Shown here piece by piece: positions 24,064 to 51,109 of a stretch of DNA of 64,000 nucleotides. The stretch is from a virus. Position 1 is the stretch's first letter. The number at the start of each line of letters is the position of its first letter. Below the pieces are notes generated by a model that made no database searches, had not been told where the DNA came from, and worked only from the letters and a program-made list of their open reading frames with translations. The position numbers and the translations under genes are program-made. Where the stretch lies: positions 1,996 through 65,995 of the IMG/VR virus record IMGVR_UViG_3300045922_001133, one strand, 5' to 3'.

Positions 24064-24067
24064 GGGA

Positions 24068-25926: not shown

Positions 25927-25972
25927 TCTGCTCTCCTGGGGACACACAAGAAGTACCATGCGGGAGAAAACC

Positions 25973-26653
25973 ATGGGAAGCACGGACCTGTACGTCACGC
26001 CGGCAGAAGCCGCTGAACTCCTCGGCGTATCCGTGGAGATGGTGCACGTCTACGACCGCAAGCAGCTCCTCGAGGCGTACTACCCAAACGGGCGAAAGGC
26101 CGGGAAGCGATTCCTCGCCGAGGACGTCTACGCGCTCGTCGAGCTCCGGCAGGAGCACAAAGGGGACTTCCTCCGAAGGCTTCCGCAGATCGCGATGCGC
26201 GCGGTCGTCACGAGCCGGCGTGTCGAGAAGCGCCTCGACGAGCTCATGCAGTTCCTGGGGTTGAACGACGTGGTCCTCCCCCTCGACGCCACTTCCATCG
26301 CACTGCTGCACTTCCAGGTCGAGAAGGCACTGGCACAGCCGCGCGTCGAAGACCAGCAGGAGCTTCTCGACTGGGCGAAGAAGCTCCTCGCGATCAACGA
26401 AGAGTACCTCGACCTCGTGAAGCTGCATCTCGGCGACGAGTACCCCTGGAAGCCGTACCTGGACCTGGCGCGGAAGCTCTCGGAGGCATGCGGGGGACGG
26501 CAGCGCAGCTTCCTCGAGCACGCGCGGGCGAACCTCCGGAACGTGGCCTACTTCTACGAGCGCTCGTGGCGCGGGCCGAAGGAGGCCGAGAAGCTGTTCC
26601 CGGGGGAACGCTACTCCGGCCGACTCCTTCGGCGCGTGCTGACGGACGCCTAG
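25973..26653 (+). CDS. MerR/excisionase-type helix-turn-helix DNA-binding protein
   Basis: YVTPAEAAELLGVSVEMVHVYDRKQLL...GKRFLAEDV; GGGAG RBS; antisense to the late block. Confidence 0.75.
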   Translation: MGSTDLYVTPAEAAELLGVSVEMVHVYDRKQLLEAYYPNGRKAGKRFLAEDVYALVELRQEHKGDFLRRLPQIAMRAVVTSRRVEKRLDELMQFLGLNDVVLPLDATSIALLHFQVEKALAQPRVEDQQELLDWAKKLLAINEEYLDLVKLHLGDEYPWKPYLDLARKLSEACGGRQRSFLEHARANLRNVAYFYERSWRGPKEAEKLFPGERYSGRLLRRVLTDA

Positions 26654-29600
26654 CCCTGATAGAGCGGTCCGGTGTAACCGGAGTACTGCGGGCCGACGTT
26701 CTCGTACTCCCTCTTCGGCGCGATGATGTCCGGACGCGGGCGCACGATCATCGACCCGAGGAAGCAGTAGAGAATCGAGTGGAACGAGTCATCCGGGCGG
26801 TCCGGGCGGTGCTGGTACTGGATCATCCGCAGCGTCTCGTTGTACTCGCTGAAGATGTTCAGCATGTCCTGCGCGTAGGGCTGGTGGAACTCCTCCCAGC
26901 GGGGGAACTCGAACTGCCCGCGCTTAATAGCGGCGAAGATGTCGCTCATCACCTCGGTGCGGTGCACGAGGAAGCGGGCGAGCCGATCGTCGCGGTAGAC
27001 CTTCTTCTTCACGCGAGCCTGGTATTGGAACTTGTGGAAGCGCGCGGGACCGAACTCGCGGACGAGGACGTTGTTGCTCGCGAAGCCGCCGCCGTAGTCG
27101 GCAGCGATGATGCGGCAGTTGAAGGCCCGGATGATGGCGACGATCTTCGAGATCTGGATCTGCGGGTCGACGTCCTCGCCGGTGAATCGGTGAATCCAGA
27201 AGATGCGGAACCGATGCCCCTCGTAGTATCCGAGCGACATCACGGTGTAGCTGTTCTCGCCGGTGTTGCCTTGGTACGAGATGCAGCCGTTGCGCTCCGT
27301 GACGATGTAACCCGTCGGAACAGAGCAGCAGTACACCTTGCCGTTGTATGGCACCCGCTCAACCGAAGAAGACGGCGTGTTGAGCTGGTAGTCCCTGCCC
27401 TCGGACCAGGACACCCGCCACTGCGCTTTGCGGTTCCCGTTCGCCTCCTTGTGGGGACGAAGTACGGCGCGAAGCCCGAGTCGGATGCAGATCTCCTGGA
27501 AGTCTTCGCAGAGCCCCTTCGAGGTGGAATAGAAACTTCCGCCGGTGTTGCCGGGCCGAGGATCGATAGAACCATCACCGCCGACCATCGCACGCCAGAG
27601 AATCCAGAGCTGGCGCTGGCTGAGCCGAAGGAACTCACGCGGGATACGCTTCTCTGCTCCCGTACGCCCTACGTTCTCGGCGTACCAGTGCCAGTACTGC
27701 TTGCCGTAGATGGTCCAGTTGACGTCACCCGTCTTCGGGTTCAGGAACGCCTTGTACGGTATCTGCATCCGATCGAGGCATGCCTGAATCCGTTCGCAGA
27801 CGTGCGCGTTGACCGTTCTCCGTTGAGACATCTTCAGGCACGAGGGCCTGTCACCGTCGAAACAGAGGCCACCTTCGGTCACGAGGTACCCGAGGAGCTC
27901 AAGCCAGTCGTCCATCGAGAACGTGCGTTCGTCCGAACCGGAGTACCCGGGGCTGATCGGGAGGCCGGGCAGGGTAAAGTAAGGTACTTCTTCACCACGC
28001 CATGTGACCGAACCCACGAACTTCACGTTGCCGCCGCGCTTCACGGTCTCGCCGGCCGCTTCCGTGACCCACTTCCCGCTGGGCAGAGGGTTCACCCGCA
28101 TCCGATGGGTGTCGGTCACCATGAGATCAAGACCATCGCGCGTCTTGAAGTGAAGAAGTGGCCTGTCCCAGTCTCGGATGGTCCGGACCTTCGGGGTCAC
28201 GAACGTCATCTCCCGCGTGTCCGGATCCCACTGCGCAACCTTGTCGTCGGCCTTCAGGTCGCGGAAGTACTTGAAGCCAGTCTCGGTGAGGATGCGCGTC
28301 TCTTCGTCATGGCAGCCCCAGTCGATGCCGGCGAAGACTTCCGTCCCGTTGAGCAGCATCTTCCGCGTGCGCTCGACGGCGTCGGGGTGCATCGTGAGCT
28401 GCGGATTGCAGCAGTCCTTGATCTGCCCCATCGTCAGCGGACGAAGGCCCGAGTCGTACGAGATGCCGAGCACCTCGTTGTAGAACTTGTCGCGAGAGTA
28501 GCGGCTGTAGTCGAGGAGGATCTCGTCCCAGGGCCGCCAGGGGACCATGAGCTGCGGGATGCGGTAGCTCTCGAAGATGCCGTCAGCGACCATCTGCGCC
28601 CACTGCGCCTTCTCGTGCATCGGGTTGATGAGCGACCCGCACTTCTCGCAGATGAGACCCTTGCGACCGATGTTCTTCTCCGAAAGCACGTTCCAGTGCA
28701 TCCCGGTCTCGCCGCCGTGCTTGTCGCAGGGGACGACCCACTCGCCCTGCGTCGACATCGGCTTGCCGTCTTTCGACACGCCGGAGCGGTAGTACTCGAT
28801 GGGGTTGTCGAGGCCCTTTGGCGTACCGGCGTAGATGAACCGCCTCATCTGCTCCGGCGCGTGGGACGTGCACTGCTCGATGACGGGGATGTTGTCCGCT
28901 ATGATGTCCTGGAGCTCGTCGAGCGCGAGCAGCCAGGCAGGGATGCCTCGAGTGTTGTGGATGAACATCCCGTCGACGAGGTAGTTCTCCGTCTCGCTCA
29001 CGGTCAGGTCGTAGGTCTGAGCCTCGCCCGCCGGGTCGATGCTTGTGATGCGCGCCCATCCAAGCTCGCTTTCGGCGAGGCTGGTGAGGTAGGCGTCCTC
29101 GAGCTTCCGGGCAATCTCGGCGAGGACGCGGCGACCGATCGACGTCTTCGTGTTGCCAGGACGGAGCTGGATCTTGTGCTTCATCCACGCCGAATGGGTC
29201 GTCAGACCGTGGGCGCGTTTGAGGTAAGCGCGGAGATCGGCATAGGAAAGCGGGATGCGGTCGGCGTCGTCCTTCTTCCTGCTGACCAGGCACGCGGCCT
29301 GGTACACGGACGCAAAGGCTTCCTCCTTGCCGAGGACGGGGATCTGCTCACAGAAGGCCTTCACGGAGGCCGCGGAGCGGATCGACAGGACGTAGGCGCC
29401 CTGGGCTCCCGCCGTAGACGGCTTCTTCTGGCGGCTGACCCAGGAGACAACGCCGAACCGAAGGAGAAGGACCTTCAGGTCGTGCAGAAGTCCGAGCGAG
29501 TTGGATGCATAGCCGATCTCGAACTGCCGTCGTGAGCTCAAGCTCGCCCAGCCATCCGTCGCATAGATCGCCCCGAGCAGGGCAGCTACCTGCGCTTCGT

Positions 29601-30825
29601 TCCCGGTGAAGAAAGCAGAAGGCACGCGCTTGGTCGCGTGGTTCTGGCCAATGAGGCCAAGCTCCCGGAGGCGCTTCTTGTAGCCCTGGATACCTCCAAA
29701 GATTCCCTGCCGCTTGGTCTCGCTTTCGACCCAGTGGGCGCGGTTGCTGTCCTGGAGTTTCCCGAGCTTGGCTCCGAGGGCCTGGGCGCACCGCTGAAAA
29801 TCGGACATGACGACCGGGCAGCCGTTGAAGAAGGCCACCCCGTTGAACGTCGTCAGCGAGCCGTCTCCCAAGAGGTAGCCCACAAGGCGGTACTCCTCGA
29901 TGGGAATCTCGTTACCGCTACCGTGCGCGGAGCGGCGGGGCACAGCGACGTAGTCCCCGACGTGAAGGTCTTTGACCTGTCGCCAGCCGTTCCACGTCAG
30001 GAGAGGCTGGTTGTCCGTACACGTCGTCTCTGCCCCAGCTTCGAGGCGAACGGTGAAGACGGGGCGTCGACCTTGGTAGACGACGTCCTCGAGCTGGGCA
30101 GGGACCGGCTTGAGGGCTTCGGGATCGGCAGACCAAACCCAGCGGCCCACGTAGCTCGCCGGGTCGTCGTAGATCTCCTTCAGGGTCGCGACCGCACCAT
30201 CCGTGAAGTGCACGCGCGTGCTGCCGATCGCGCAACGGTCGGCGTTGAGGAACGCGTAGCGCATCGTGATCTTGGCGCGGTTCACGAACTGCTTCTCGAG
30301 GATGTTCATCGAGAGCGCGTTCGTCGTGTACGCCTTCAAGATCGGACTGGTCTCGATCGGCTCCTTGATACGGTCGCTCGAGAAGGTCTTCGTCTGCGTC
30401 GCTGACGGCGAGACGTATAGCGTCTTGTAGCCGGGGATGAGGCAGGAGTACGTCAGGATGATGTTGCCGAGGAGCGTCGACTTCTCGACCTGGCGCCCGC
30501 AGAAGAGCAGCACGCGCTTCGCCGGCGTGTTGTAGGGCCGCTTCATGTGACGGCGGCCCTCGAACGTGAAGTTCTCGTAGCCCGTGCCGTCCGCCTTCGG
30601 CATGCGGAAGGCGAACTCGGTGAACTGGCTTGGATAGATCGCGGGGATCTTCTCGAGCTTCTTCGCCTTGAACTCGATGTCGAGGAAGTCCTCGAAAGGC
30701 TCGGGCTCGGGCATCCAGGGCATGCCGTCCTGCATGCACTGGAGCTCTTCGTCGGTGAACTCGACGGGGTCGAGATCCTCCTCCCCCGGCGGCTGCCTCT
30801 CGATGTCTCTCTGGACCGCGTACAT
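26650..30825 (-). CDS. terL: terminase large subunit (gpA-like), with two inteins
   Basis: 1391-aa precursor, 614 aa mature; Walker A region CGRQVEKST; RG...LALDE Walker B; Zn ribbon PCDKH...CEKC; nuclease GIDWG and PDDSFHS. Confidence 0.9.
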   Translation of the reverse strand: MYAVQRDIERQPPGEEDLDPVEFTDEELQCMQDGMPWMPEPEPFEDFLDIEFKAKKLEKIPAIYPSQFTEFAFRMPKADGTGYENFTFEGRRHMKRPYNTPAKRVLLFCGRQVEKSTLLGNIILTYSCLIPGYKTLYVSPSATQTKTFSSDRIKEPIETSPILKAYTTNALSMNILEKQFVNRAKITMRYAFLNADRCAIGSTRVHFTDGAVATLKEIYDDPASYVGRWVWSADPEALKPVPAQLEDVVYQGRRPVFTVRLEAGAETTCTDNQPLLTWNGWRQVKDLHVGDYVAVPRRSAHGSGNEIPIEEYRLVGYLLGDGSLTTFNGVAFFNGCPVVMSDFQRCAQALGAKLGKLQDSNRAHWVESETKRQGIFGGIQGYKKRLRELGLIGQNHATKRVPSAFFTGNEAQVAALLGAIYATDGWASLSSRRQFEIGYASNSLGLLHDLKVLLLRFGVVSWVSRQKKPSTAGAQGAYVLSIRSAASVKAFCEQIPVLGKEEAFASVYQAACLVSRKKDDADRIPLSYADLRAYLKRAHGLTTHSAWMKHKIQLRPGNTKTSIGRRVLAEIARKLEDAYLTSLAESELGWARITSIDPAGEAQTYDLTVSETENYLVDGMFIHNTRGIPAWLLALDELQDIIADNIPVIEQCTSHAPEQMRRFIYAGTPKGLDNPIEYYRSGVSKDGKPMSTQGEWVVPCDKHGGETGMHWNVLSEKNIGRKGLICEKCGSLINPMHEKAQWAQMVADGIFESYRIPQLMVPWRPWDEILLDYSRYSRDKFYNEVLGISYDSGLRPLTMGQIKDCCNPQLTMHPDAVERTRKMLLNGTEVFAGIDWGCHDEETRILTETGFKYFRDLKADDKVAQWDPDTREMTFVTPKVRTIRDWDRPLLHFKTRDGLDLMVTDTHRMRVNPLPSGKWVTEAAGETVKRGGNVKFVGSVTWRGEEVPYFTLPGLPISPGYSGSDERTFSMDDWLELLGYLVTEGGLCFDGDRPSCLKMSQRRTVNAHVCERIQACLDRMQIPYKAFLNPKTGDVNWTIYGKQYWHWYAENVGRTGAEKRIPREFLRLSQRQLWILWRAMVGGDGSIDPRPGNTGGSFYSTSKGLCEDFQEICIRLGLRAVLRPHKEANGNRKAQWRVSWSEGRDYQLNTPSSSVERVPYNGKVYCCSVPTGYIVTERNGCISYQGNTGENSYTVMSLGYYEGHRFRIFWIHRFTGEDVDPQIQISKIVAIIRAFNCRIIAADYGGGFASNNVLVREFGPARFHKFQYQARVKKKVYRDDRLARFLVHRTEVMSDIFAAIKRGQFEFPRWEEFHQPYAQDMLNIFSEYNETLRMIQYQHRPDRPDDSFHSILYCFLGSMIVRPRPDIIAPKREYENVGPQYSGYTGPLYQG
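27265..28314 (-). mobile_element. intein 2 in TerL (LAGLIDADG, 350 aa)
   Basis: Starts CHDEETRI after GIDWG, ends ISYQGN, +1 Thr; LLGYLVTEGG and WRAMVGGDGS. Confidence 0.9.
28954..30234 (-). mobile_element. intein 1 in TerL (LAGLIDADG, 427 aa)
   Basis: Starts CAIGSTRV after NADR, ends MFIHN, +1 Thr; LVGYLLGDGS and LGAIYATDGW. Confidence 0.93.
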
Positions 30826-35500: not shown

Positions 35501-36697
35501 TCAGGTCAGGACCGTCGGCGCCCCCGTGATGACCGTGCCGAAGAGCACGAGCGGCGGCGAGCCGGGGATGGGGACAGGGGTGTAGGGGATCATGACCTGC
35601 ACCATCGAGCCGAGGTGCGCGACGGGCTTGGCGCCGGGACCGAGGCGGACGACACCGCCCTTCAGGTGCGCGAACGCACCGCCGTCGATGGTCGCGCCGT
35701 TCTTCGCCGTGACAGAGTACTCCGCCTCGGTCTTGAACTGGATGCCTTCATCGGCGGAGATGTGGAGGCGCTTCGCGGTCCGAAGAACGATGCTCCCCTT
35801 CGCGCGGAGGAGGACGTTCCCGGCCTTGTCGAAGAAGAAGCGGAAGACCTGCGAGCTCTTCGCTCCGGGCTCCTGCGCGCCGCTCTGCGGGTTGAACCCA
35901 CCAGGAGCGACGACGACCTCGCACATGATGAAGTTCTCTTTGGTCCCCATCCCGAGCTGGTTGATGTCGCCGGCGGCGCCGTCGTCGGGTTCCACCATCA
36001 GGTCGGTGCACTTGCCTATCTTCACGCGGACGTCCGCGCTCTTGTCGTTCGCGTAGACGCGGAACGAGTGGGTGTACTCCGTAGGGAGCTTGTCGAGGTT
36101 CGCGCCGGTCTGCACGCTCCAGAGGATGGATCCGCCAGCGTTGTGGTGAGCGTAGTTCTCGCTCACGTCCATGATGAAGTTGTTCAGCGGAATGTAGATG
36201 CGCTGAGCGAGCTCGGTTGAGCCGAGCTGGAGGACGCCGCCGCGATGGAGGATGACGAAGTTGTCGTCGCGCGTGCGGAAGAGGATGTCGCCGGGCTTCA
36301 CGCGCGGCCGACCGCCGGCGAAAGACGCACCAACGGACGAGCGGTTCGGCTTCGAGTGGCTCGTCGTGCCCTTCTCCGCATCCGCCGCTGCGAGGTCGAC
36401 GTTCTCGACCGGCATGATGAACGTCGAGACGTAGGGCGGGCTCGAGTCACTCGGGAGCGTGACCATGCACTTCGCCCCGATCTCCGGAAAGATGCTCATG
36501 CCCTCCCCGTTCGAGTAGTGCATGTACGGGCTTCCGACCTGGATGTCGAAGTACTTCTTCCGGTCGAACTGGGTGACGACGTCGACCGTCCAGTTCACCA
36601 GGTTGAGGCCCACGACTTTCCCTTGAACCACCTGCGCGGCGACGTTGCCGGCCTGGCTCGTGAAGGAAGTTCGGAACCGCGGAGTGCCCTCGCCCAT
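35501..36697 (-). CDS. putative baseplate central spike (gpV/gp5-like) with PAAR-like C-terminus
   Basis: N-terminal OB-like GKVVGLNL...VDV...GSPY...FPEIGAKCMV; beta-repeat ISADEGIQFK; C-terminal PVAHLGS...GTVITGAPTVLT. Confidence 0.7.
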   Translation of the reverse strand: MGEGTPRFRTSFTSQAGNVAAQVVQGKVVGLNLVNWTVDVVTQFDRKKYFDIQVGSPYMHYSNGEGMSIFPEIGAKCMVTLPSDSSPPYVSTFIMPVENVDLAAADAEKGTTSHSKPNRSSVGASFAGGRPRVKPGDILFRTRDDNFVILHRGGVLQLGSTELAQRIYIPLNNFIMDVSENYAHHNAGGSILWSVQTGANLDKLPTEYTHSFRVYANDKSADVRVKIGKCTDLMVEPDDGAAGDINQLGMGTKENFIMCEVVVAPGGFNPQSGAQEPGAKSSQVFRFFFDKAGNVLLRAKGSIVLRTAKRLHISADEGIQFKTEAEYSVTAKNGATIDGGAFAHLKGGVVRLGPGAKPVAHLGSMVQVMIPYTPVPIPGSPPLVLFGTVITGAPTVLT

Positions 36698-36700
36698 GCG

Positions 36701-39700
36701 TCAGTAGTGGTGCTCCGGGACGTTCTTCAGGTGACCGAAGCCCGGACGCAGGTGATGGGCCCGCGTGAGCCCAAGCTCGGCGCCGTAGGCGATGGCAGGG
36801 ATGGGGTGAGTGCCGTGGATGTTCGACCGGCTTCCGAGGGCGGCTGCCTCCGCAATGGTCGATCGCAGCTTCTGGTGCTGCAGCTTCGCCATCCAGTCCT
36901 CCTGGAGCGAAAGCGGCATCATGTTGATGCCCTTCAGGACGGGCGTGTGCTCGATCGGGCGTCGGCCGGCCTTCACAAGCTCGCTGTTCTGCTTCTGGAC
37001 GACGGACAAGGGCTGGAACTCCCCGCGAAGAACACCGACGGCGTCCCCGGGGTGGACCACCTTGGTGAGGTTCGACATCGCCTTCACGACGGTCTCGATG
37101 TGCCGGCGCTTGATCCCCTCATCCTTGTACAGGTCGTACATCTCCGAGACCAGGTGGTTCTGCACCTTGTCGATACTACCAGTCGCCTTGTAAAGGTCGT
37201 GGGGGTTCACGAACGTCCGGGCCGGGTCGGAGAGCGGTGAGCCCGCGGTGACGTACTGCCCGACCTTGAGCCCAGTCCAATTCGAGCTCCCGTAGGGCTG
37301 ATGAAGCGGGTGGCCGGCGGCGTCCTTGCCGACGAAGTGCTTCTTGCCATTGATGTAGACATTCGCGCCCGTTGACGTCGGTTCGATCTTCTCGATCTTG
37401 CCGCTCGTCATCGCGAGGCTCGCCGCGTTGGGGATCTTCTTCGGCAGCATGGTGAGCTGCTCGAAACGCGCGAAGCTGTTCAGGAGCTTCCCGCCCGACT
37501 GCTCGACGACGCCACCGGTGTGGAAGCTCTTCAGGGTGAGCTGCACCGCGCGCTCGCCGACGGCGTGCGCCGCGTGGATGCCTGCGTTCGTCCCGACATC
37601 GTGGAAGTCCCCGTGCGATCCGACGCCGAGGCACTTCTGGCAGATACCCTTCTCGTGCTCGCACTTCAGCGGGCTCCGGACGAGGAGCTTGGCGTTCTTG
37701 TCGACCGCCTTGATCTGTCCCGTAATGTCCGGAGTGAGCACGGTGCCCGCCTTCACGTGGAGCTTGCCGTGCGTGAAGTCCTGCGCGAGCACCCGGTCGT
37801 GGATGTCCTTCTCGTGGACGCCCATCGCGATCCCGCGCGTGGTACCGCAGTCCTTGCTGCCCACGAGGAGGTCCATCGTGTTGTTCATGAGGAGCTTCGA
37901 CATGTAGCCGGGCTCCTGGACCTCCTGGACCTTGAGCACGGAGCCGCGGCGAGCGCCGTGCATCTGCGTCCAGTACGAGCCGACGTCGAGGCCCTCGGAG
38001 TAGCTCTTCGTGACCGGCATGGGGATGACCCGGTCGGAGGAGTCCTTCAGCAGCATCGGCGCGAGGACCATCTGCTTGTACTGGTCCCACCCAGGCTTCA
38101 CGCCCGCCTTGTACATCGTGAAGAGATTCGTCGGCTTCTTCTCGAGCTTCTTCTCGTGAAGGGCCTTCATCTCCTGGTCGGCCTTCGAGTAGATGGCGAC
38201 GATCCGCCGGTTCTTCTCTGCCTCGGGGAGAGGCGAGCTCCGGATCGCCGCAGCCTCCTTGTCGGCCTTCGAGAGCACTTGGTTTCGGACGGTCTTGTCG
38301 GCGGCGAAGTCCGCGAGCCCGAGGGAGTGCGTCCCGATCGGGACGAAGACGTTCTTCTTCGGGTCGGTGAGGTTCGCGATCGTCGTGTGTGGCAGCGGAA
38401 CGGCGACGGCGCCGAAGGACGCGTCGTTACCGAGGTCCTTCAGCCTGTTCACCGCGCGGTCGAAGTCCGCCTTGTGGTCCTTGCCGAGGCGGGTGAGCAG
38501 CCCCTCGAGGCCCTTCTTGTCGAGCCGGTGGTCGAGGTTGTAGAGGATGTCGTCCTGCATCGCCGGCGGCAACGCGGTCGAGAGAAGCACACGACCCGGC
38601 GTCGTCTTCTTGCCGTTCAGCGAGACGACATCATCGTGCTTGAGCTTGCCCTGGCGAACCGCGTCGAGCACGGCGCCGGGGTTCGAGAAGCTCTTGCCGG
38701 TGTCCTTGCCGGTAAGCGAGAGCTTGTAGATGCCGAGCGCGCTCTCGAGCGTCGGGCTGAAGGCGATCTTGCCGGTGCTCTCTGCGAAGAGGTTCTGCGT
38801 CGGCTTCATCTTGTGCGCCTCGTTCACCGCCTCACGGGAGATGGGAACGAAGACGCTCATCGTGTTGGACAAGACCACCCCGTCAACGGACATGAAGGTC
38901 TCGAAGCCGGGTACGGTCAAGTCGTAACCGTTCTCAACGATGCCAGTCTTTTCGAAGGACACAACACGGTCCCAGCGAACTCCCATGTCACGCGCAAGAC
39001 AAGACCATCGCCAGAAACACTCGTTCTCGCTGGGAAGGGTTGGAATACGGTCGAGAATCTCCAGAGCGGAAGAACGAGACACGTACTCCCGATCCATCGC
39101 GTTTGACAAAACCACATACACGGACTGACCGAGCGAGGTTCCAATGCGATCCCGGAGCTGCTTCGCCACTCCACGCGGCGTCGGGATGATGTCCAACCGC
39201 GCATGAGCCTGTTTCCGGGAAGGACAAGGCCCTTGAATGAAGGAACGGAATGCCTCCGCCTTCTTTACGTGATTGAGGGGCAGCTCCCCGAGGGTGTGAA
39301 AGTCCACGGTCGAGAAGTTTACCGTCCAAACAGGCTGCTTCTTCAGCGTTTTGCCCGCGGTCATCTTCGCCCGAACAGAAAGAGAACGGGCGAGGGACAC
39401 AACTTCATAGGCCAGTCGCGTACTTGTCGTACTGAGGCTGATGAGGTACTGCGGCTTGTCCTTGGCATTGCTGACGCTGATCGACCCATCCGTGTCGATC
39501 AACCCAGCAAGTAGGCCGAGGCGGAAGTCCCGCGGAGCCGTCAGGAAGAAGGGCGGAAGGTGCTTCTGCGCGGCACCGTGGCCGATCAACGGCGCGATGA
39601 ACTTGGCGGCGGCCGTCGAGTTCACCACGTAACGACGACTCTCGACCGATTCCCCGAAGTCCCCACCAATACGCTCGGTAAGAGACACCAAAGGGATCTC

Positions 39701-42700
39701 CTTGAACAGCGCGAGAAGATCTTGCGTAAAGCCAACAGCAACACTGCTCTCGGCGGCAGCGATAGCCACCCCCTTCAAGGTGCCATTGGCACGAACAACC
39801 CAACCATCCCCGACCAGCGTACCGAGAAGCCGACCCGCTCGAGCATCGAGGTCGAAGGAAGCGCGAAGACGATCATCGCCTTCTGGCAGGGGGAGAGCCC
39901 GACGCGACGTCTTTACTTCCCCGTCCGCCATGACGGGAACAAACAAGCCCAAAGACTCACTCGGGCGCCTCCGCACGAAGTTGAGGTCAGAGTCGAGACC
40001 GTAAACCGCTCGCGGGTCGTCGTCGGTAACGATCTGGCGACCCGACGCCAACGTCACGATCTCCACCAAGCGGCCCGTGTGCCTCGACCAATAGCGCACG
40101 TCAGCAAGAGTCAACTTCTTCGTTTGCTCGTCGAAGGCAAGAACCTGAAGGCCCTCAGGCACAGGATGGAAGTCGATGTGACCTTGGGTGACCTTCTCTT
40201 CAGCGTGGGGGAAGTCCGCCAGGTCGCAGAAGTAGAAGTCCCCCTGGAACACGTACCCAACGAGCTCATGAAACCACGCGGCCATCTCCGGCCCCACCTT
40301 TCGAAGAGACCACCACAGGGCATCCGGCCACGGCGCCTCTCCAAGGTGGGTAGCACGGACTTTCCCTTGGGCAAGTCCGCGTTGCATGACAGAATCGCGG
40401 ACAAACAGGACTACTTGACCAAGTTGCTGGTCGCCGTCGAAGTCAGCGTTGAAGCCGCCGCAGACGAGCGGGTGGATCTTGATGGCGTTGCCCTCGACAG
40501 CCTTCGCCTGGAAGGCCTGCACCGAGTACTTGTGCAGCGCCGGGTCTCGCTTCAGGAGCACCGGACGCTCCTCCATCACCTTGTCGAGCGCGCGCCAGAC
40601 GGGTTCGCTCCTCTGCGCGAGCATCTTCTGGGCGTCGAGCGGCGTCGGCGCGGCGCCCATCTCCTGAAGCTTCTTCACGACGAAGGGCCGGAAGAGGTCG
40701 AGCGCGTGCGTCTTCGGCAGACCGACCTCGTCGAGGCCGAGCGCAGGCTCGGGGACGATCGTCGAGCGCATCGTGAGATCCTGGCGCTTCTGGACGAGAG
40801 CGCGCTGGAAGAACCCGCTCTTCGGGCTCGCACCGGAGAGCATGTGGAGCAAGCCCTTGTGCTCCGCGTCCTTGTACGGGATGCCGTAGCCGATGATGGC
40901 CTTCACGCCATCGTAGAGGTTCCGGCGAAGCTCGCTCTTCCGGCTCTCGGTGAAGTTCCGGAGGATGGTCGGGTCCTTGAGCTGGTCGTTGACCTGCGCG
41001 AAGTCCGAGTAGAGCTGGTTGATGTCGGCGTACTTGATGTTGCCGTCTTGCATCAACGACGCGGGGCGCATCACTGGCGGGATGACCGGGATGTTCTTCA
41101 GGATGTACGCCTCGTGCGGCTTCATCCCGAGCTGGTCGAGGGCCCTGAGGTACTTCACCTTCTTCAGGAGCGGGTCGACGTCGGCAGCCTTCGCGTTGTT
41201 GAGCGCGGTCTGCGCCTTCGAGAGCTCTTTCTTCACGTCGATCTGCTTGAGCATGTGCTCGATCGCGTGACCACCCGTGAAGACGCCCTTGCCGAGGTTA
41301 GCGAGCGTGCCGTTCGGATGGATACCCTTCTCACCGGCGATGACAGCGTTGAAGTCCTTCTGCGATAGCCCGGTGAGCACGCGGATGGGCGTCTCGAAGA
41401 GGGGGTTCGGCACCGGCTCGGCGAGCGGGATGCGCGACCACTTCGTGCCGCCGTGACCACCGGTGAGCTTCTCGTCGAAGAGGCCGCCCGGCCGCGGCTT
41501 GAGCTCGCCGGTATTCTTGTCGATCTTCGCCTCGAGCCGCTCGCCCGGCCTCGGCAGGACGCGATCGCCGGTGAGCTCGAGGATGTGCTTGTCGGTGAGC
41601 GGCGAGAGGACGAACTCGTGGCCCTTCTTCTCGATGTTCACGCCGGCGCCGCGAAGCAGGTCCTCGAACTTCTTGAAGGCGAACGTGGGCTTCGGCGTCG
41701 GCAGCGGCTCGCCCGTCTGGATGGCCTTCCACACCTGGTTGTGCTGGCTCGGCCAGCGCTTCGCCTCGTTCGTCTGCGGGTCCGGGCCTTCGCCCTTCCA
41801 CGTCTGCATCTCGCGCAGGTTTGCCTTCGCGCCGTGCGCGAGGAGCGCGTACATGCCGAGCGTGCCGATGCGCTGCCCGGTCTTCGGCTGCAAGTTGATG
41901 TCGTACTTGTCCGTGGAGGGCAGACCCGGGAGGCCCATGCCCGGCGCGACGGCGACCTTCTTGTCAACCTGGTGGACGAGCTTGAGAATGTGCTGCTTGC
42001 CGACAAGGGCCTTGCCGAGCGGCTGCCCCGTGACCGGATCGTAGATATCCTCCTGGTCGGAGAGGCCGTGCTTCTTCAGCTCGGCCTGCACGTGCGCGAC
42101 CATGTCGGCGTCCTTCTGGAACGACGGCGCGACATAGGACTTGCCGAGCTTCTCGGCGATCTTCGACGCGGCAGTCTCGAGGACCTGGCCGACGTTCATG
42201 CGCCCGGGCACACCCGACGGATTGAGCGCGACCTCGATGTGCTTGCCGTCCTTCGTGCGGGGCATCTCCTTGTCCGGGAGGATCATCGTGACGATGCCCT
42301 TGTTGCCGTAGCGGCCCGCGATCTTGTCGCCGACCTGCATCGGCTCGATGGTCTTCACGTGGACCTGGATGCCGTCCTTGCTCCTCGTGATGCCAACGAC
42401 CTCGCCTTCCCCTTCACCGTCCCAGCGGAGGCTCTTGTCGGTGTGCGTGCCGGTGATGCTCTTGCGGATCGCGGCGACGCCCGTGCGGTCCTTGATCTCG
42501 AAGGGCTTCACGGCGAGGATGAGCGGGTCGCCTGGGCGCACGCGCGCGCCGATCTTCGGCAGGCCGTCCTCCCCGATGTGCTCCATCTGGTCCTTCTTGA
42601 AGAGGCCCGGATGATGGATCTCGAACTTCCGACGCCCGAGGATGGTCTTCTCGTCGACAGCGAGCACCGGCTTGTAGAGGTGCACCGAGGCGAGCTTCTT

Positions 42701-44638
42701 CGCCGCGCTCTCCGAGATGACGACGCCGTCCTCGAAGTTGTAGCCCTTGAACGGGATGTACGCGACGCGGAGATTCGTCCCGAGAGCGAGGGTGCCGTTC
42801 TTCGAGAAGTTCGTGTCGGCGATGACCTGCCCCGCCTTCACGCGGTCACCGACCTTCACCGTCGGTGTCGAGTGGAGAACGCTCTTCGCGTCGTTGAGCG
42901 GGTAGTTGTTGTAGATGTGGACCTCGCGGATCTTGCCATCCTTACCCTTGAGCACGATGGCGTCCGACTTCACCGCGTGAACGACACCATCGATGGGTGC
43001 CTGGTGAGACGCCTGCGTCCCGAGCACGCGCTCGAACGAGTTCATGTTCGGCTTGTCGACGCCCGTCGAGACCTGAACGAGCGGCTCCTCGCGATGGAGG
43101 AGCGAGATGGCCTGCTCGATGTGGCGACTCGCCATCGACGCGCGGTTGCCTGACGTGTTCCCGAGGAACGGGATCAGGTTCGACGTCATGTTGAAGAGCT
43201 GGCTCGGGTGGCGCATCACGTAGTGCGCGTCGTCGAACTTCCCGTCCTTCATCTCGTTGTTCGGCCCGACGATCTTCACCGTCGATCCGATCGGCCTCGG
43301 CTTGCCGTTCTCCCACTTCACCTGATCGGGGAGAACGACGTTCTTCGTCACGAAGTCGCCGGGGGAGACGAGCTCGGTCTGCTGCGTCTTCAAGTTGTAG
43401 AGCGGGATCTTCGGCTCGTTGCCGACCTTCTTCACGCCGAGCGGCAGGCGAAGCGTCACGCCGGTCTTCGAGCCCTCGGGCGTGTGGATCGGGTCGAGGA
43501 AGCCGAGGTGCGACGGGTTGACGAACTTCGCTTCGTCGGTGATCGACTTCTCGCTCTTGATGCCGCCGGGACCCATGATGGTCGTCTGGAGCGAGCTCGA
43601 GACCATCTCCACAGGGTTGATCTGCGTGGCGATGCGCGCGGCGCTGTTCTTGTGGAACGTCTGCTTGATCGGGTCGTTGAAGAGGTCGAACTTGACGATG
43701 TCCCGGATGTCGTTCGCCTGGTTGATCTTGCGCGCGGTCTTCGCCGATATGACCTTCGCCGCGCCCCTGAGCTTGTCGAACACGAAGTCGCCAGCGGAGC
43801 GGAGGTCCTTGAACATGAGGCTGTCGCGGTCGTCCTCCGGGTGACCACTCTGGACCTTCATCAACTTCTGCGCTGCGAGAAGTAGCGCTTCACCGTTCAC
43901 GTGGTCGATGGGCTTGCCGAGCGTGAGCGCCGTCGCCTCGGGGCGCATCTTCGACCCAACGAACGTCTCGTAGAGGTGCTTCTCCGCGATCTCCTTCGAG
44001 GGCGGAGCCTCGCGGCGGTCCGTCTTGTAGAACTTCTCCACCGTGCCGGCGACGCCGCGAGCGTTCTTGTTCGCTTCGAACACCTCCTTGCCGAGCGCCT
44101 TCTCGATCGTGTGGTCGTCGAGACCCATCACCTTGAAGATCGGGTACGCCGGAAGCTTCGCCTTGTTGTACTCGATGACGAACTGCTTCGTGCCCGGATC
44201 GAACACCATGTCGAACGGCGTCTTGTTCGCGACGTTGAAACGAGTCTCGAGCTCGCCGTTCTGGCGACGCCGTGTGTAGGCGCCGGGCTTGAGCTGCCAC
44301 TGGTTGTCGATCTGGTACTCCTGCCCATCGAGGATGTAGGAGTAGCGCTGCGTCTGCTTCGGGATCTCCGCGAGGCGGATACGACGGCGGTCGACCGTCT
44401 TCCCGGTGATGTTGTCGACGAGCTCGAGCTCGCCGAAGACGGGCACGGCGTACGACCCACCCTCGACCTTCGCCTTGTGCTGCAACCGCAGGTCGTCGGG
44501 GTGAAGATCATCCTTCACTTCGATCTTCTTCAGGTAGAGCGTCTGGAGCTTTCCCTTGATCGGGAAGTGGCTCTGGATGCCCTCAATCGTCCTGTCGCGG
44601 AAGTGAGCGAACGCCTCCGCCGGATCCAGGTAGGCCAT
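36701..44638 (-). CDS. phage multisubunit RNA polymerase, beta-beta' fusion, with one intein
   Basis: Start at MAYLDP; 2645 aa. Beta motifs: NPSHLGFLDPIHTPEG, GYNFEDG, GDKIAGRYGNKG, NPSGVPGRMNVGQ, GQRIG. Beta' motifs: PVIPPVMRP, LLKRDPALH, NADFDGD, bridge helix RRGSV...PGYMSKLL, trigger loop GERAVQLTLKSFHTGG. Junction near 41620. Confidence 0.95.
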   Translation of the reverse strand: MAYLDPAEAFAHFRDRTIEGIQSHFPIKGKLQTLYLKKIEVKDDLHPDDLRLQHKAKVEGGSYAVPVFGELELVDNITGKTVDRRRIRLAEIPKQTQRYSYILDGQEYQIDNQWQLKPGAYTRRRQNGELETRFNVANKTPFDMVFDPGTKQFVIEYNKAKLPAYPIFKVMGLDDHTIEKALGKEVFEANKNARGVAGTVEKFYKTDRREAPPSKEIAEKHLYETFVGSKMRPEATALTLGKPIDHVNGEALLLAAQKLMKVQSGHPEDDRDSLMFKDLRSAGDFVFDKLRGAAKVISAKTARKINQANDIRDIVKFDLFNDPIKQTFHKNSAARIATQINPVEMVSSSLQTTIMGPGGIKSEKSITDEAKFVNPSHLGFLDPIHTPEGSKTGVTLRLPLGVKKVGNEPKIPLYNLKTQQTELVSPGDFVTKNVVLPDQVKWENGKPRPIGSTVKIVGPNNEMKDGKFDDAHYVMRHPSQLFNMTSNLIPFLGNTSGNRASMASRHIEQAISLLHREEPLVQVSTGVDKPNMNSFERVLGTQASHQAPIDGVVHAVKSDAIVLKGKDGKIREVHIYNNYPLNDAKSVLHSTPTVKVGDRVKAGQVIADTNFSKNGTLALGTNLRVAYIPFKGYNFEDGVVISESAAKKLASVHLYKPVLAVDEKTILGRRKFEIHHPGLFKKDQMEHIGEDGLPKIGARVRPGDPLILAVKPFEIKDRTGVAAIRKSITGTHTDKSLRWDGEGEGEVVGITRSKDGIQVHVKTIEPMQVGDKIAGRYGNKGIVTMILPDKEMPRTKDGKHIEVALNPSGVPGRMNVGQVLETAASKIAEKLGKSYVAPSFQKDADMVAHVQAELKKHGLSDQEDIYDPVTGQPLGKALVGKQHILKLVHQVDKKVAVAPGMGLPGLPSTDKYDINLQPKTGQRIGTLGMYALLAHGAKANLREMQTWKGEGPDPQTNEAKRWPSQHNQVWKAIQTGEPLPTPKPTFAFKKFEDLLRGAGVNIEKKGHEFVLSPLTDKHILELTGDRVLPRPGERLEAKIDKNTGELKPRPGGLFDEKLTGGHGGTKWSRIPLAEPVPNPLFETPIRVLTGLSQKDFNAVIAGEKGIHPNGTLANLGKGVFTGGHAIEHMLKQIDVKKELSKAQTALNNAKAADVDPLLKKVKYLRALDQLGMKPHEAYILKNIPVIPPVMRPASLMQDGNIKYADINQLYSDFAQVNDQLKDPTILRNFTESRKSELRRNLYDGVKAIIGYGIPYKDAEHKGLLHMLSGASPKSGFFQRALVQKRQDLTMRSTIVPEPALGLDEVGLPKTHALDLFRPFVVKKLQEMGAAPTPLDAQKMLAQRSEPVWRALDKVMEERPVLLKRDPALHKYSVQAFQAKAVEGNAIKIHPLVCGGFNADFDGDQQLGQVVLFVRDSVMQRGLAQGKVRATHLGEAPWPDALWWSLRKVGPEMAAWFHELVGYVFQGDFYFCDLADFPHAEEKVTQGHIDFHPVPEGLQVLAFDEQTKKLTLADVRYWSRHTGRLVEIVTLASGRQIVTDDDPRAVYGLDSDLNFVRRRPSESLGLFVPVMADGEVKTSRRALPLPEGDDRLRASFDLDARAGRLLGTLVGDGWVVRANGTLKGVAIAAAESSVAVGFTQDLLALFKEIPLVSLTERIGGDFGESVESRRYVVNSTAAAKFIAPLIGHGAAQKHLPPFFLTAPRDFRLGLLAGLIDTDGSISVSNAKDKPQYLISLSTTSTRLAYEVVSLARSLSVRAKMTAGKTLKKQPVWTVNFSTVDFHTLGELPLNHVKKAEAFRSFIQGPCPSRKQAHARLDIIPTPRGVAKQLRDRIGTSLGQSVYVVLSNAMDREYVSRSSALEILDRIPTLPSENECFWRWSCLARDMGVRWDRVVSFEKTGIVENGYDLTVPGFETFMSVDGVVLSNTMSVFVPISREAVNEAHKMKPTQNLFAESTGKIAFSPTLESALGIYKLSLTGKDTGKSFSNPGAVLDAVRQGKLKHDDVVSLNGKKTTPGRVLLSTALPPAMQDDILYNLDHRLDKKGLEGLLTRLGKDHKADFDRAVNRLKDLGNDASFGAVAVPLPHTTIANLTDPKKNVFVPIGTHSLGLADFAADKTVRNQVLSKADKEAAAIRSSPLPEAEKNRRIVAIYSKADQEMKALHEKKLEKKPTNLFTMYKAGVKPGWDQYKQMVLAPMLLKDSSDRVIPMPVTKSYSEGLDVGSYWTQMHGARRGSVLKVQEVQEPGYMSKLLMNNTMDLLVGSKDCGTTRGIAMGVHEKDIHDRVLAQDFTHGKLHVKAGTVLTPDITGQIKAVDKNAKLLVRSPLKCEHEKGICQKCLGVGSHGDFHDVGTNAGIHAAHAVGERAVQLTLKSFHTGGVVEQSGGKLLNSFARFEQLTMLPKKIPNAASLAMTSGKIEKIEPTSTGANVYINGKKHFVGKDAAGHPLHQPYGSSNWTGLKVGQYVTAGSPLSDPARTFVNPHDLYKATGSIDKVQNHLVSEMYDLYKDEGIKRRHIETVVKAMSNLTKVVHPGDAVGVLRGEFQPLSVVQKQNSELVKAGRRPIEHTPVLKGINMMPLSLQEDWMAKLQHQKLRSTIAEAAALGSRSNIHGTHPIPAIAYGAELGLTRAHHLRPGFGHLKNVPEHHY
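38864..40429 (-). mobile_element. atypical intein (Gln1, LAGLIDADG, 522 aa) in the RNAP catalytic motif
   Basis: Inserted in NADFDGD|TMSVFVP; ends GYDLTV...GVVLSN, +1 Thr; LLGTLVGDGW and LAGLIDTDGS; lower GC3 than the flanks. Confidence 0.88.
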
Positions 44639-44693
44639 GGGGGCAGGGTACTCCACGCCGCGGAAACGCAGCAAGACGCGCACACGCAGAGAG

Positions 44694-44709
44694 ATAAGGA
44701 CTTCGAGGG
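44694..44709 (+). promoter_or_regulatory. candidate phage promoter motif ATAAGGACTTCGAGGG
   Basis: 14/16 identical to 54373-54388; both lie about 30 nt upstream of the first gene of a plus-strand unit. Confidence 0.5.
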
Positions 44710-44739
44710 CGCACACGAAACGCCGCCCTGGGAGTCGTC

Positions 44740-44847
44740 ATGAATCAGGCACGCAAACCCGAAGAAGAAGAGAACGAGAACGAGAACGAGGACAGCAAGG
44801 GGAAGCGGTTCGAAGACGACATCGACCGCTTGTACAACCCGAAGTGA
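44740..44847 (+). CDS. small acidic peptide (35 aa)
   Basis: GGGAG RBS; MNQARKPEEEENENENEDSK...; stop overlaps the next ATG (TGATG). Confidence 0.45.
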   Translation: MNQARKPEEEENENENEDSKGKRFEDDIDRLYNPK

Positions 44848-45041
44848 TGTGGCGCTTCATCTTGGCGAGCTTCACGGCAGGCTTCGTGAACGGCCTGTAC
44901 GTATGGGTCACCGGGACGCTGGAGGAGGCAGAGCAACAAGATGATCGTGAACCCGTTCCAGCGAAAGGAGATGCTGGCGACGTACGCGGGGACCCGCATT
45001 CTCCAGATGGACTTCGGTCTCGTAGGAACGGTTGTCACTGA
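44847..45041 (+). CDS. small membrane peptide (64 aa)
   Basis: MWRFILASFTAGFVNGLYVWV hydrophobic N-terminus; translationally coupled start. Confidence 0.4.
   Translation: MWRFILASFTAGFVNGLYVWVTGTLEEAEQQDDREPVPAKGDAGDVRGDPHSPDGLRSRRNGCH

Positions 45042-47486: not shown

Positions 47487-47490
<4 letters not shown>
46117..47490 (+). CDS. MoxR-like AAA+ ATPase
   Basis: Walker A GDPGIGKS, Walker B LFLDE, AAGNP, ANRF, sensor PSPRTW. Confidence 0.88.
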
Positions 47491-48983
<1,493 letters not shown>

Positions 48984-49081: not shown

Positions 49082-51109
49082 CTAGACGATCGCGGCTTCC
49101 CTTCGCGGCGGTCGCTGCTCGGGCAGAGGCTTCATGTTGATCTGCGAAGCTGCCGCTCCGGCGGCGCCGAGCCCGGGCTGCGCTGCCTCCGCGCGCTGCA
49201 CCGTGACGCCCATCTGCCTCAGCATCTGGACGACGAGGTCGGCGAGCTCGGGCGACTGCATCGCGAGGTTCTCGACAGCCTGCTGCTGTTGCTGCGGGGC
49301 CATGCCGGCGATGACCTTCGCCTGCATCACCGCCAGCGTCGGGAGGTCGACGGCGCCCGCCTGCCCCGGCTGCATCCGCTGCCCCTCGTTGAGGCCGGAC
49401 TGGAGCTCGGGCAGGCCGCCCTGCGTCGCCATCTCGCCCTGCGGCTGCTCAGTCTGGATCACACCGCCAGCCTCCTGGCCGCCGACGGTGCCCGCGCCCA
49501 TCGCCTCGGGGCCTCCGGGCTCCCCCGGCGCCGCGCCGGTCCCCATCGCCTCGATCTGCACCTGCTGCGCCTTGATCTGGTACTTCGCCATGATGAGCTG
49601 CTGCTCGCCCTGGATCTCCGCCATCGCGAGCTGCTGCTTCTTCGTCGCGGCGAGGCGCGACGCCGTCTCCTTCTCCATGATGAGGTTCTCCTCCGCCTGG
49701 TCGTAGTCGCACCCCGCGAGGAGCGTCGTGTCGGAGAGCTTGCCCGCCTGGTTGAGGTTCAGGTCGAAAGCCTTTCGCTGGATGTCGTCGGCCATCTTGA
49801 ACGGCTTGAAGCGCGGCGTCGCCATCGGCCAGCGAAGGAAGTTCGCCACCTCCCGCATCACCCAGCGCGTTAGCGCCTTGTGCCGGAGGATGAAGCCGAT
49901 GAACTGGTTCTCGAGCATGCGCATCGAGACGTTCGTGCCGGCATAGCTCATGCCGCCCTTGATGAACTCGATGGGCACAGTCATGCCGTTGAGGATCTGC
50001 TCCGACCAATGCGCGATCTCCTGCGTCATCAGGAGAGCCCTGCCGTCACCGCCAATGGTCTGGTTGCCGATCGGAAGCGGGAGGATCGGGATGTAGTTCG
50101 GGTCGTAGCGCCAGCGCGCGATCTCTGCGGCGACGTGCTCGCGCCAGTCGACGAGATTGATCGTCGTGAACGGATCGCTCGTGCCGCTCGCGGCCTGCGG
50201 GAAGATGATGCGCAGCGGCACAATGTGCTCGAGGAGGATGGCCTCCTGCGCCTTCTTCATGATCTGGAGGTAGAAGACGTCCTTCAGGACGGGGAGGAGA
50301 AGCGGGATGCCCCAACCCCGGTCGTGCGTCGCGATCGTCGGACGCCGCATGTGGAAGAGGTTGTCCTTCGAGAAGACGATGCCCTTCTGCTGGCGGAGCG
50401 CGGCGATGAAGACCTGCGGGATGCCCTCGAGGACGTCCTTCTTCCCGATGACGATGTCGTTCCGAACGGTCGCCGGGATGGTGTAGAAGTACGTGTACTC
50501 TCCCGTGATGTCGTTGTAGGTGATCTCGATGTCCTCCGGGTTCCAGCGGATCAACTTGATGCCGCTCGGGTTCCGGAAGTAGATGTCCTCCGCGTGCGCG
50601 TCACCGATGATGGAGCACTTCGGACACGTAAGGCGGAAGTTGTAGTTCGTGAAGACCCAGTTCGCGCGGATCTTGTCCGCCGGCGCGGAAAAGCCGCAAC
50701 TCGTGCACTTCAGGTACTTCTTGAACGGGTAGCCGATCGAGATGAACGCGTTTCCGTAGGTGTGGTAGTCGAGACCAACCTCGACCTGGAACGCACGAAA
50801 CCGGAGGTGGTCCTGGAAGTAGTCGGACCACTTCTTCGAGACATCCTTGTTCTCGTGGTCGATGATGAGGTCGGTGACCGGGTACTCGGAGAGCTTGAAG
50901 ACGACCGCGTTGATGAGCGGGTTCGTCAGGAAGTAGTACCGGCACCACCGGAACATCTGCTTGATCGTGGTCGGCAGATAAGTGTGCGCGATGTCGAAGA
51001 ACGGCGACGGGTAGTTGATCCCCGTGGTCGAACCGTTCTGGATGCGTCCACGCGTCGGGCTGAAACGCAACGGTGACGACGCAGACCCGAAGCCGCCAAA
51101 ACCCATCAT
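49082..51109 (-). CDS. portal protein with Zn-ribbon insertion
   Basis: 675 aa; portal-like NPLINAVV, GLDYHTYGNAF, IRWNPEDI, FHMRRP...GWGIPLL; CTSC...CPKC insert; Gln/Gly-rich tail. Confidence 0.8.
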   Translation of the reverse strand: MMGFGGFGSASSPLRFSPTRGRIQNGSTTGINYPSPFFDIAHTYLPTTIKQMFRWCRYYFLTNPLINAVVFKLSEYPVTDLIIDHENKDVSKKWSDYFQDHLRFRAFQVEVGLDYHTYGNAFISIGYPFKKYLKCTSCGFSAPADKIRANWVFTNYNFRLTCPKCSIIGDAHAEDIYFRNPSGIKLIRWNPEDIEITYNDITGEYTYFYTIPATVRNDIVIGKKDVLEGIPQVFIAALRQQKGIVFSKDNLFHMRRPTIATHDRGWGIPLLLPVLKDVFYLQIMKKAQEAILLEHIVPLRIIFPQAASGTSDPFTTINLVDWREHVAAEIARWRYDPNYIPILPLPIGNQTIGGDGRALLMTQEIAHWSEQILNGMTVPIEFIKGGMSYAGTNVSMRMLENQFIGFILRHKALTRWVMREVANFLRWPMATPRFKPFKMADDIQRKAFDLNLNQAGKLSDTTLLAGCDYDQAEENLIMEKETASRLAATKKQQLAMAEIQGEQQLIMAKYQIKAQQVQIEAMGTGAAPGEPGGPEAMGAGTVGGQEAGGVIQTEQPQGEMATQGGLPELQSGLNEGQRMQPGQAGAVDLPTLAVMQAKVIAGMAPQQQQQAVENLAMQSPELADLVVQMLRQMGVTVQRAEAAQPGLGAAGAAASQINMKPLPEQRPPRREAAIV

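Follow-up and report, generated by a model that had tools for sequence, protein, structure and literature searches.

Multisubunit RNA polymerases (RNAPs) are defined by their assembly from several chains, and the α subunit is thought to be the platform that unites β with β′. A gene of almost 8 kb from an uncultured virus raises the question of whether a phage can carry the whole core of such an enzyme in one chain and, if so, how that chain is used. The gene lies in a stretch of 64,000 nucleotides, referred to here as the window (positions 1,996 to 65,995 of IMG/VR record IMGVR_UViG_3300045922_001133). The IMG/VR contig comprises 66,280 bases and is estimated to be 36% complete, which corresponds to a genome of about 180 kb. 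An earlier note on this DNA, made from its letters alone, had described a single-chain β-β′ polymerase encoded inside the virion-protein operon and had suggested an enzyme that is packaged in the virion and possibly independent of sigma.

The gene occupies positions 36701 to 44638 on the minus strand, with a TGA stop at 36701-36703. Its open reading frame (ORF) extends to an upstream GTG (36701..44716, minus strand; 2671 residues), and all residue numbers of the polymerase given here count from that GTG. Since the intein-free homologues begin at MAYLDP, which corresponds to M27, we place the true start at the ATG at 44638, giving a product of 2645 amino acids (aa) with its intein and 2123 aa without. 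Pfam searches located the β domains Rpb2_3 and Rpb2_6 at aa 362-922 (Rpb2_6, E = 1.7e-61), the β′ domains Rpb1_1, Rpb1_2 and Rpb1_5 at aa 1158-2559, and the homing-endonuclease domain LAGLIDADG_3 at aa 1730-1799. With the intein removed, the 2123-aa protein aligned in order with residues 83-1338 of Escherichia coli β (RpoB) and then with residues 181-1346 of β′, at 25-30% identity, and its β′ half matched β′ chains of the Protein Data Bank at E = 8e-50. The β module (aa 27-1031; 41624..44638) is followed by an N-terminal β′ module (aa 1032-1429; 40430..41623) with the clamp helices, lid region and double-psi β-barrel, ending in the catalytic NADFDGD (40430-40450), and by a C-terminal β′ module (aa 1952-2671; 36704..38863) with the bridge helix, the second zinc site (37631-37852) and the trigger loop, all on the minus strand. 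The portion from about aa 2039 on corresponds to a separate gene in the cultured phages Arash (gp216) and D69 (D69_0264).

Pfam matches, collinearity with E. coli and motif positions agreed with the earlier claim that all core β and β′ motifs lie in a single ORF, and the residues listed there as intact were found in place. In the E. coli alignment, the β′ motif NADFDGD (aa 1423-1429) with its Asp triad, the β motif NFED (aa 660-663, aligned with E813/D814) and GDK..GRYGNKG (aa 796-807, its two Lys aligned with K1065/K1073) are all preserved; the bridge helix and trigger loop aligned and are intact, and the SI3 insert is absent. The second zinc site, likewise read as kept (DCGT...KC...ICQKC), retains its four Cys, with DCGT at 2289 and KCEHEKGICQKC at 2351, in the spacing of E. 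coli C814/C888/C895/C898. The β′ clamp helices, which are the sigma docking site in bacteria, are retained, and the flap-tip region of β is strongly diverged. The rifampicin pocket carries the substitutions Q513R, D516T, H526S, R529Q and S531T (E. coli numbering) at the classical rifampicin-resistance sites; because each of the main contact and resistance sites is changed, we predict the enzyme to be rifampicin insensitive. Judged from its sequence, the product is a single polypeptide that comprises the entire catalytic core of a bacterial-type (two-barrel, multisubunit-class) RNAP, with β joined head to tail to β′. Its collinearity with two universal proteins, and its conservation in more than 100 independent assemblies, exclude chance as the origin of this 8-kb frame.

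How the two subunits are joined could be read directly from the junction (...GAGVNIEKK/GHEFVLSPLTD...; 41576..41644, minus strand). The earlier note had placed it near 41620, and this was exact: GVNIEKK (aa 1025-1031) is followed by GHEFVLSPLT, with boundary codons at 41621-41626. We aligned the region for 14 diverse fused homologues, Arash Gp206, D69_0261, the C terminus of E. coli β and the N terminus of β′. The end of the β part (..GVNIEKKGHE) matched E. coli ..GINIELEDE, and the β′ part begins with FVLSPLTD, which matched E. coli IKIALASPD; nothing in the phage fusion corresponds to the first ∼18 residues of E. coli β′, and the junction has neither a start codon nor a spacer. Across 82 aligned sequences with identities as low as 38%, the G, N, K, G, L, P and T of the junction were each conserved to 90% or more. 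AlphaFold2 modeled aa 930-1429 as one confident domain (mean pLDDT 91.9, pTM 0.88), which matched bacterial β′ chains with TM scores of 0.65-0.67 over about 450 columns. In this model the junction is a β-hairpin whose strands comprise model residues 97-102 and 105-110 (pLDDT about 90-95). Since the last strand of β and the first strand of β′ are thus joined by a two-residue turn, the model predicts that the linker is a fixed structural element and no loose tether.

Also in agreement with the earlier note, the N-terminal zinc-binding domain of β′ is missing. At GGLFDEKLTGGHGGTKWS (41435..41488, minus strand), E. coli residues about 66-95 are replaced by GGHGG, and GGHGG stands in place of the zinc-ribbon cysteines C70, C72, C85 and C88 in every phage sequence that we aligned, including Arash Gp206 and D69_0261.

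An 8-kb fused gene in a metagenome contig might be an artefact of assembly or gene calling, in which a sequencing error at the junction merged two adjacent genes. Such contigs can hold indels, and the genes of some relatives are visibly frameshifted; otherwise we found nothing in favor of this explanation. A word-indexed search of 5.8 billion proteins, with homologues clustered at 90%, returned 119 homologues besides the window's own protein, most of them 2119-2163 aa long and the others longer, with inteins (on contigs of up to 200 kb). The β part, the junction and both the N- and C-terminal parts of β′ were present in 119/119. With the β part alone as the query, we also scanned 1.84 billion 50%-identity representatives exhaustively with HMMER and took the best 150, all with E ≤ 1e-174 and 36-65% identity. 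Among these, 128 contained all four parts, 15 more contained β with the junction or part of β′ (143 in total), and 7 were short β fragments. Two short, seemingly β-only proteins that were checked on their contigs both cross the junction and then change frame, and a clean stop at the junction was not found in any of the 119 homologues or the best 150 representatives. The unbroken junction thus recurs across many samples and assemblers, and is present as well in Arash and D69, which are cultured phages with complete genomes; together with the lack of a start codon or spacer, this makes a merging error vanishingly unlikely. The single-chain polymerase first noted in the window is therefore a shared trait (119 homologues, at least 143 of the 150 representatives). 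These sequences indicate that the fusion is ancestral to the phage family, and the layout is conserved across a very large family of roughly 165- to 200-kb uncultured tailed phages.

To place the family, we computed a tree from intein-free β and β′, a check that the earlier note had proposed. A scan of GTDB species genomes yielded 80 bacterial rpoC loci from many phyla; the tree comprised 38 bacteria of about 20 phyla with complete β and β′ (including E. coli and the Helicobacter rodentium and Wolbachia fusions), 35 intein-free phage proteins, Arash and D69. It was built from 1930 well-filled columns (MAFFT FFT-NS-2; IQ-TREE LG+G4, quick search) and is unrooted, without an archaeal or eukaryotic outgroup. 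All 38 bacteria fell on one side of a branch with an SH-aLRT support of 100. The fused phage clade had a support of 96 and its sister, the Arash/D69 clade, a support of 100, and the branch between the groups measured 1.35 substitutions per site. The path from the window's enzyme to E. coli was 3.35, compared with about 1.1 from E. coli to Actinomycetota or Bacillota. The phage enzymes group together, with no sampled bacterial phylum interleaved among them; this rules out a recent capture from a sampled phylum and, the tree being unrooted, does not prove a pre-bacterial origin.

The Helicobacter and Wolbachia RpoBC proteins resemble the window's enzyme in carrying β and then β′ in one polypeptide (2908 aa in L048 and 2853 aa in L110). 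They differ from it in being full length, aligning from E. coli β′ residues 8-15 and thus covering the zinc-ribbon region, and they work with α, ω and sigma. In the tree they nest inside Bacteria with their own phyla, and their fusions are therefore independent of the phage fusion. One GenBank entry, MT836236 ("Bacteriophage sp."), was considered as a phage relative with separate genes and rejected, as its adjacent rpoB and rpoC are typical of a bacterium. Cobetia phage Carin-5 (L117; cultured, 155 kb), when added to the tree, formed a long branch of 2.1 substitutions with no reliable place. Between 4077 and 10902 it carries adjacent genes for a sigma factor (196 aa), β′ (1083 aa) and β (927 aa); its polymerase has only about 26% identity to that of the window.

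The best matches among 50,697 phage records were Vibrio phages D69, D148 and D181 (∼187 kb) and Salmonella phage Arash (181 kb). The polymerases of these cultured myoviruses (about 180-187 kb; Arash Gp206 and Gp216, and 0261 and 0264 of D69, D148 and D181) have the same junction and the same zinc-ribbon deletion as the fused family, and in Arash and D69 the polymerase gene also stands just after the portal gene and sigma genes are present. They differ from the window's enzyme in that β′ is split into a second gene several genes downstream, the active site reads AADYDGD, and identity is about 32% (over 96% of the β part). In Arash and D69 the portal gene is followed by a small ORF and then by a gene for a protein of ∼1525 aa, which comprises β and β′ to about 90 aa past the active site; a ∼606-aa protein encoded further downstream supplies the remainder of β′. 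The Arash and D69 records label the genes "subunit beta" and, in D69, hypothetical proteins, and the Arash paper names Gp206 β and Gp216 β′ and leaves the fusion uncommented (PMC10585845).

Directly after the active-site motif the window's chain is interrupted by a 522-aa LAGLIDADG intein (aa 1430-1951; 38864..40429, minus strand), which lies between NADFDGD and TMSVFVP, starts with QQLG and ends with LSN, with Thr at +1. Its bounds are given by a single clean 522-aa gap relative to P0003, an intein-free protein that is 90% identical. With Gln at position 1, TDDD in place of the expected TxxH and an SN end that has no penultimate His, the intein could be one that cannot splice, so that the active-site loop stays interrupted and the gene is inactive or decaying in this phage. 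Against such decay, the 8-kb frame is wholly open, and the exteins are 90% identical to the intein-free homologue. The site directly after DFDGD is moreover an intein hot spot: of about 270 homologues, 39 carry an insert there. A first type of insert, which includes the window's intein, ends with ..DLTVPG.ETFM..DG..LSN/T, has Q, H, D, M, A or C as residue 1, and was seen at this position in at least 16 homologues of diverse kinds, all with open frames. Because open-frame inserts of this type are so widespread, the odd first residue seems to be an old, maintained trait and no fresh lesion, and we consider a decayed gene very improbable.

A second type of insert at the same site starts with Cys or Ser-Cys and ends with ..VVWD/T, Asp replacing the usual C-terminal Asn. 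In eight of these (P0023, P0076, P0114, P0123, P0139, P0175, P0184 and P0233) the flanks read DFDGN/C....WD/T, the third catalytic Asp being changed to Asn on the N side and an Asp standing at the C end of the insert. Since splicing at canonical borders would leave these eight with the active site DFDGN, their true borders or splicing chemistry may be shifted by one residue. Inteins are not confined to the polymerase: the large terminase carries a LAGLIDADG intein, and a 1299-aa homologue of D69_0270 (20164..24063, minus strand) carries two Hint/LAGLIDADG inserts, giving at least four inteins in the 64 kb.

Which partners the chain works with was addressed in the relatives' records. In each of five (58-89% complete), one ORF of 2052-2773 aa contained both Rpb2_6 and Rpb1_2, and no second polymerase set was found in those five records. 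Neither α (PF01000) nor ω (PF01192) was matched in this contig or in the relatives' records that are 58-89% complete, and the control genomes all matched; the enzyme could conceivably use host α. The two most complete relatives (89% and 75% complete; 168 kb and 137 kb) each have a gene for a sigma-70-family protein of ∼255 aa (MNP..FL...DDLR...), which lies far away from that of the polymerase (L031:1258-2022, plus strand; L033:1468-2238, minus strand). These two proteins share 56% identity; Sigma70_r3 scored 30 bits against a Pfam cut-off of 25.3, with weak matches to r2 and r4. Sigma factor genes are also present in Arash and D69. In BLAST comparisons the fused-family sigma-like proteins showed no similarity to those of Arash, D69 and Carin-5; with the Arash/D69 proteins they have only the Pfam sigma-70 regions in common.

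These observations bear on the earlier suggestion that the single-chain enzyme recognizes promoters alone, without a sigma-like factor. That note had seen neither an α nor a sigma gene in the window, and neither was found in the 66-kb contig; this contig represents only about 36% of the genome, however, so the absence says little. Since a sigma-70-family protein is conserved between the 89%- and 75%-complete relatives, the lack of one here is best explained by the absent two-thirds of the genome. A sigma-free mode of action would fit the loss of the zinc ribbon and the divergence of the flap tip, both of which aid sigma and upstream contacts in bacteria, and according to the literature other virion polymerases (N4, crAss-like gp66) act without sigma-70 homologues. 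With a sigma encoded not only in those relatives but also in Arash and D69, Arash Gp10 in the virion list, and the clamp helices retained, sigma independence was not borne out, and we regard it as improbable.

The polymerase gene does stand within a virion-protein module, as the earlier note had claimed. A portal gene (675 aa; 49082..51109, minus strand), homologous to Arash Gp204 and D69_0259, which stand just before the polymerase gene in those phages, lies upstream. Downstream, 3 nt past the polymerase stop, is the ATG of a 398-aa protein (35501..36697, minus strand) resembling the gp5/Phage_base_V central spike; the likeness comes from language-model features only (scores of 0.93-0.96), and the protein sits directly downstream of the polymerase in 22 relatives. 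Pfam and PHROGs gave no match for the three genes downstream of the polymerase, and a language-model atlas gave nothing usable for a 788-aa protein. The order portal, RNAP, gp5-like spike, 788-aa homologue and large terminase (TerL), on one strand, was conserved in 22-23 of 27 related IMG/VR loci. The window keeps this order, with its intein-bearing TerL (26650..30825, minus strand) recognized by protein searches, but has a plus-strand insert between portal and RNAP; in more distant relatives the portal gene is directly upstream of the polymerase.

This plus-strand block (44740-48983) was seen only in the window's subclade (L004-L007, L025 and L027). It comprises a 35-aa acidic ORF at 44740, then a membrane-like ORF, and a 624-aa DUF2201/VWA metallopeptidase-like gene at 47109-48983. 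Between the block and the polymerase gene lies a divergent intergenic region (44639..44739), a candidate promoter region with a motif (..CTCGAAGTCCTTATC.. on the minus strand) conserved in close relatives. The motif at 44690-44711 (minus strand: CCCTCGAAGTCCTTATCTCTCT) is kept in the loci of the five closest relatives as ..AA(G/A)(T/C)(T/C)CTT(A/G)T.. and overlaps a candidate promoter of the earlier note (44694-44709). A promoter/terminator consensus scan of the window showed no enrichment relative to shuffled sequences, and no tRNA genes were found in the window.

Whether the enzyme travels in the particle can be approached through Arash. Mass spectrometry of sucrose-gradient-purified Arash virions detected Gp206 most strongly of all proteins, with 128 unique peptides and 3516 spectra, above the major capsid protein; Gp216 came fifth with 1210 spectra, and the sigma factor Gp10 gave 467 spectra (PMC10585845). 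The DNA helicase Gp217 and Gp218, encoded directly after the C-terminal β′ gene (23091-26406 in Arash, L001), were detected about as strongly as Gp216, with 38 and 36 unique peptides (PMC10585845), and Gp216-Gp218 may form a packaged transcription module in Arash; no homologues of Gp217 or Gp218 were found in the window. The Arash authors offer early transcription or carry-over as explanations (PMC10585845). The earlier proposal of a virion-packaged enzyme is thus plausible, from conserved gene order and Arash virion proteomics, and packaging is likely for this phage.

The explanation that we favor, and consider reasonably probable as a whole, is a single-chain bacterial-type core in which splicing, tethering, sigma use and packaging are combined. 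The intein after NADFDGD would have to be removed to yield the active 2123-aa enzyme, and covalent tethering would take over the assembly role of α (and ω), which these phages appear not to encode. Promoters would be recognized via the ∼255-aa phage sigma-70-family factor, encoded elsewhere in the genome and docked on the β′ clamp helices. The polymerase would be synthesized alongside the virion proteins, packaged, and brought into the host cell together with the DNA; early phage transcription would then need no host polymerase and would continue under rifampicin. Because it is the only phage polymerase, it would probably serve later genes too.

The main competing explanation is a nonvirion enzyme, made during infection for middle or late genes like the nonvirion RNAP (nvRNAP) of phiKZ, with its position among structural genes being incidental; host polymerase, perhaps redirected by sigma, would then read the early genes. 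Phage sigma-70-family proteins redirect the host core enzyme in many phages, and the relatives encode such proteins. The chain shows no N-terminal targeting peptide, the gene of this subclade comes after a strand switch and may have its own promoter, and the 116 proteins of the Arash virion list may include contaminants. It is difficult, however, to reconcile a nonvirion enzyme with Gp206 as the top protein and Gp216 as the fifth in gradient-purified Arash virions, or with a gene that lies between portal and spike/terminase in every relative examined. There is also a single polymerase gene, and a late-expressed polymerase would be most useful if carried over, as with N4, the phiKZ virion RNAP (vRNAP) and crAss-like gp66. 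On balance we think a purely nonvirion role unlikely.

Several points nevertheless weigh against the packaged, sigma-dependent enzyme that we favor. Neither the canonical Cys/Ser at position 1 nor the block-B His is present in its intein, so that splicing is a prediction, and an unspliced 522-aa insert beside the Mg-binding loop would probably inactivate the enzyme. The ∼255-aa sigma-like protein was not found in three less complete records, including this contig (36% complete), and a phage sigma could serve the host polymerase instead. The virion proteomics in favor of packaging come from Arash, whose polymerase shares only about 32% identity with that of the window; the Arash list of 116 virion proteins includes ribonucleotide reductases, so that abundant infected-cell proteins may have been carried over (PMC10585845). 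The N terminus of the polymerase aligns with cellular β from its first residues, leaving no visible capsid-targeting propeptide, and in the window's subclade the gene heads its own transcription unit after the strand switch. The tree, finally, having no archaeal outgroup, shows a family that is not inside a sampled phylum rather than one that branches outside Bacteria.

Of the described phage enzymes, those of the multisubunit-RNAP-encoding Caudovirales (mReC), recovered from IMG/VR and other metagenomes, are reported to form a deep branch apart from cellular enzymes (Weinheimer & Aylward 2020, PMC7481178). These are uncultured tailed phages with cellular-like β/β′ carrying NADFDGD and with polymerase genes among virion genes (PMC7481178). 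The window fits this description in its portal, terminase and spike-like genes and in β/β′ (COG0085/COG0086-like) with NADxDGD. The lineage of deep-branching phage β/β′ that the earlier note had mentioned exists, but its listed members all have separate genes: the mReC tables give a separate β (900-1563 aa) and β′ (887-1391 aa) for every contig, several with two sets, and no shared protein, and the paper mentions fusion for crAss-like phages only (PMC7481178). The window differs in its one fused ORF, a comparison made through the published tables rather than sequences. Metagenome 3300003852 is shared between our related contigs and the mReC supplement, with different contigs, and the gene sizes of Carin-5 resemble some mReC entries. 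Because a pipeline expecting one protein per COG would drop fused genes, fused forms may have been missed and the size of the mReC group is perhaps underestimated.

The phiKZ and AR9 RNAPs are likewise phage relatives of β/β′ that act without α and ω, and their virions carry one of the polymerase sets for use in early transcription (PMC7598289, PMC13282480). In contrast to the window's enzyme, they divide β/β′ among 4-5 polypeptides, have two paralogous sets per genome and no sigma-70 homologue, and are far more divergent, with weak PHROG matches (1e-10 to 1e-33). Both catalytic barrels share one polypeptide in crAss-like gp66 (phi14:2), the tape-measure-fused RNAP of P23-45 and YonO, and the gp66 and P23-45 enzymes are virion delivered according to the literature; past the barrels these proteins have no recognizable collinearity with bacterial β/β′, whereas the window's enzyme keeps the full domain order. 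In our literature search, for which subscription journals were outside the scope, a fully fused bacterial-type phage enzyme was not described, either in the mReC paper (PMC7481178) or in reviews of jumbo-phage polymerases (PMC7824862, PMC13282480, PMC11835377). The fused family thus seems to be a new and widespread architectural variant of phage-encoded bacterial-type polymerase, apparently undescribed in the papers searched.

A bolder version of the explanation that we favor, which we put forward tentatively as possible though still doubtful, is a self-sufficient one-chain core without α, ω or zinc ribbon, the sole polymerase of a widespread family of ∼180-kb phages, that is packed with a phage sigma, ejected into the host and makes the whole infection independent of host polymerase and rifampicin. 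If true, the family would represent a multisubunit-class polymerase in its simplest natural form and would provide the first case of a virion polymerase that has kept a sigma-70-type factor. A one-gene, sigma-programmable and probably rifampicin-insensitive polymerase might also find use in biotechnology. If the enzyme is packaged, a bacterial-type protein of ∼236 kDa must cross a myovirus tail, as the N4 vRNAP does, and the family would represent a third, independent solution to host-independent early transcription. The fused family bears on the debate over deep-branching phage polymerases, and an abundant family of one-chain β/β′ enzymes with no α or ω gene nearby would allow a direct test of the need for those subunits.

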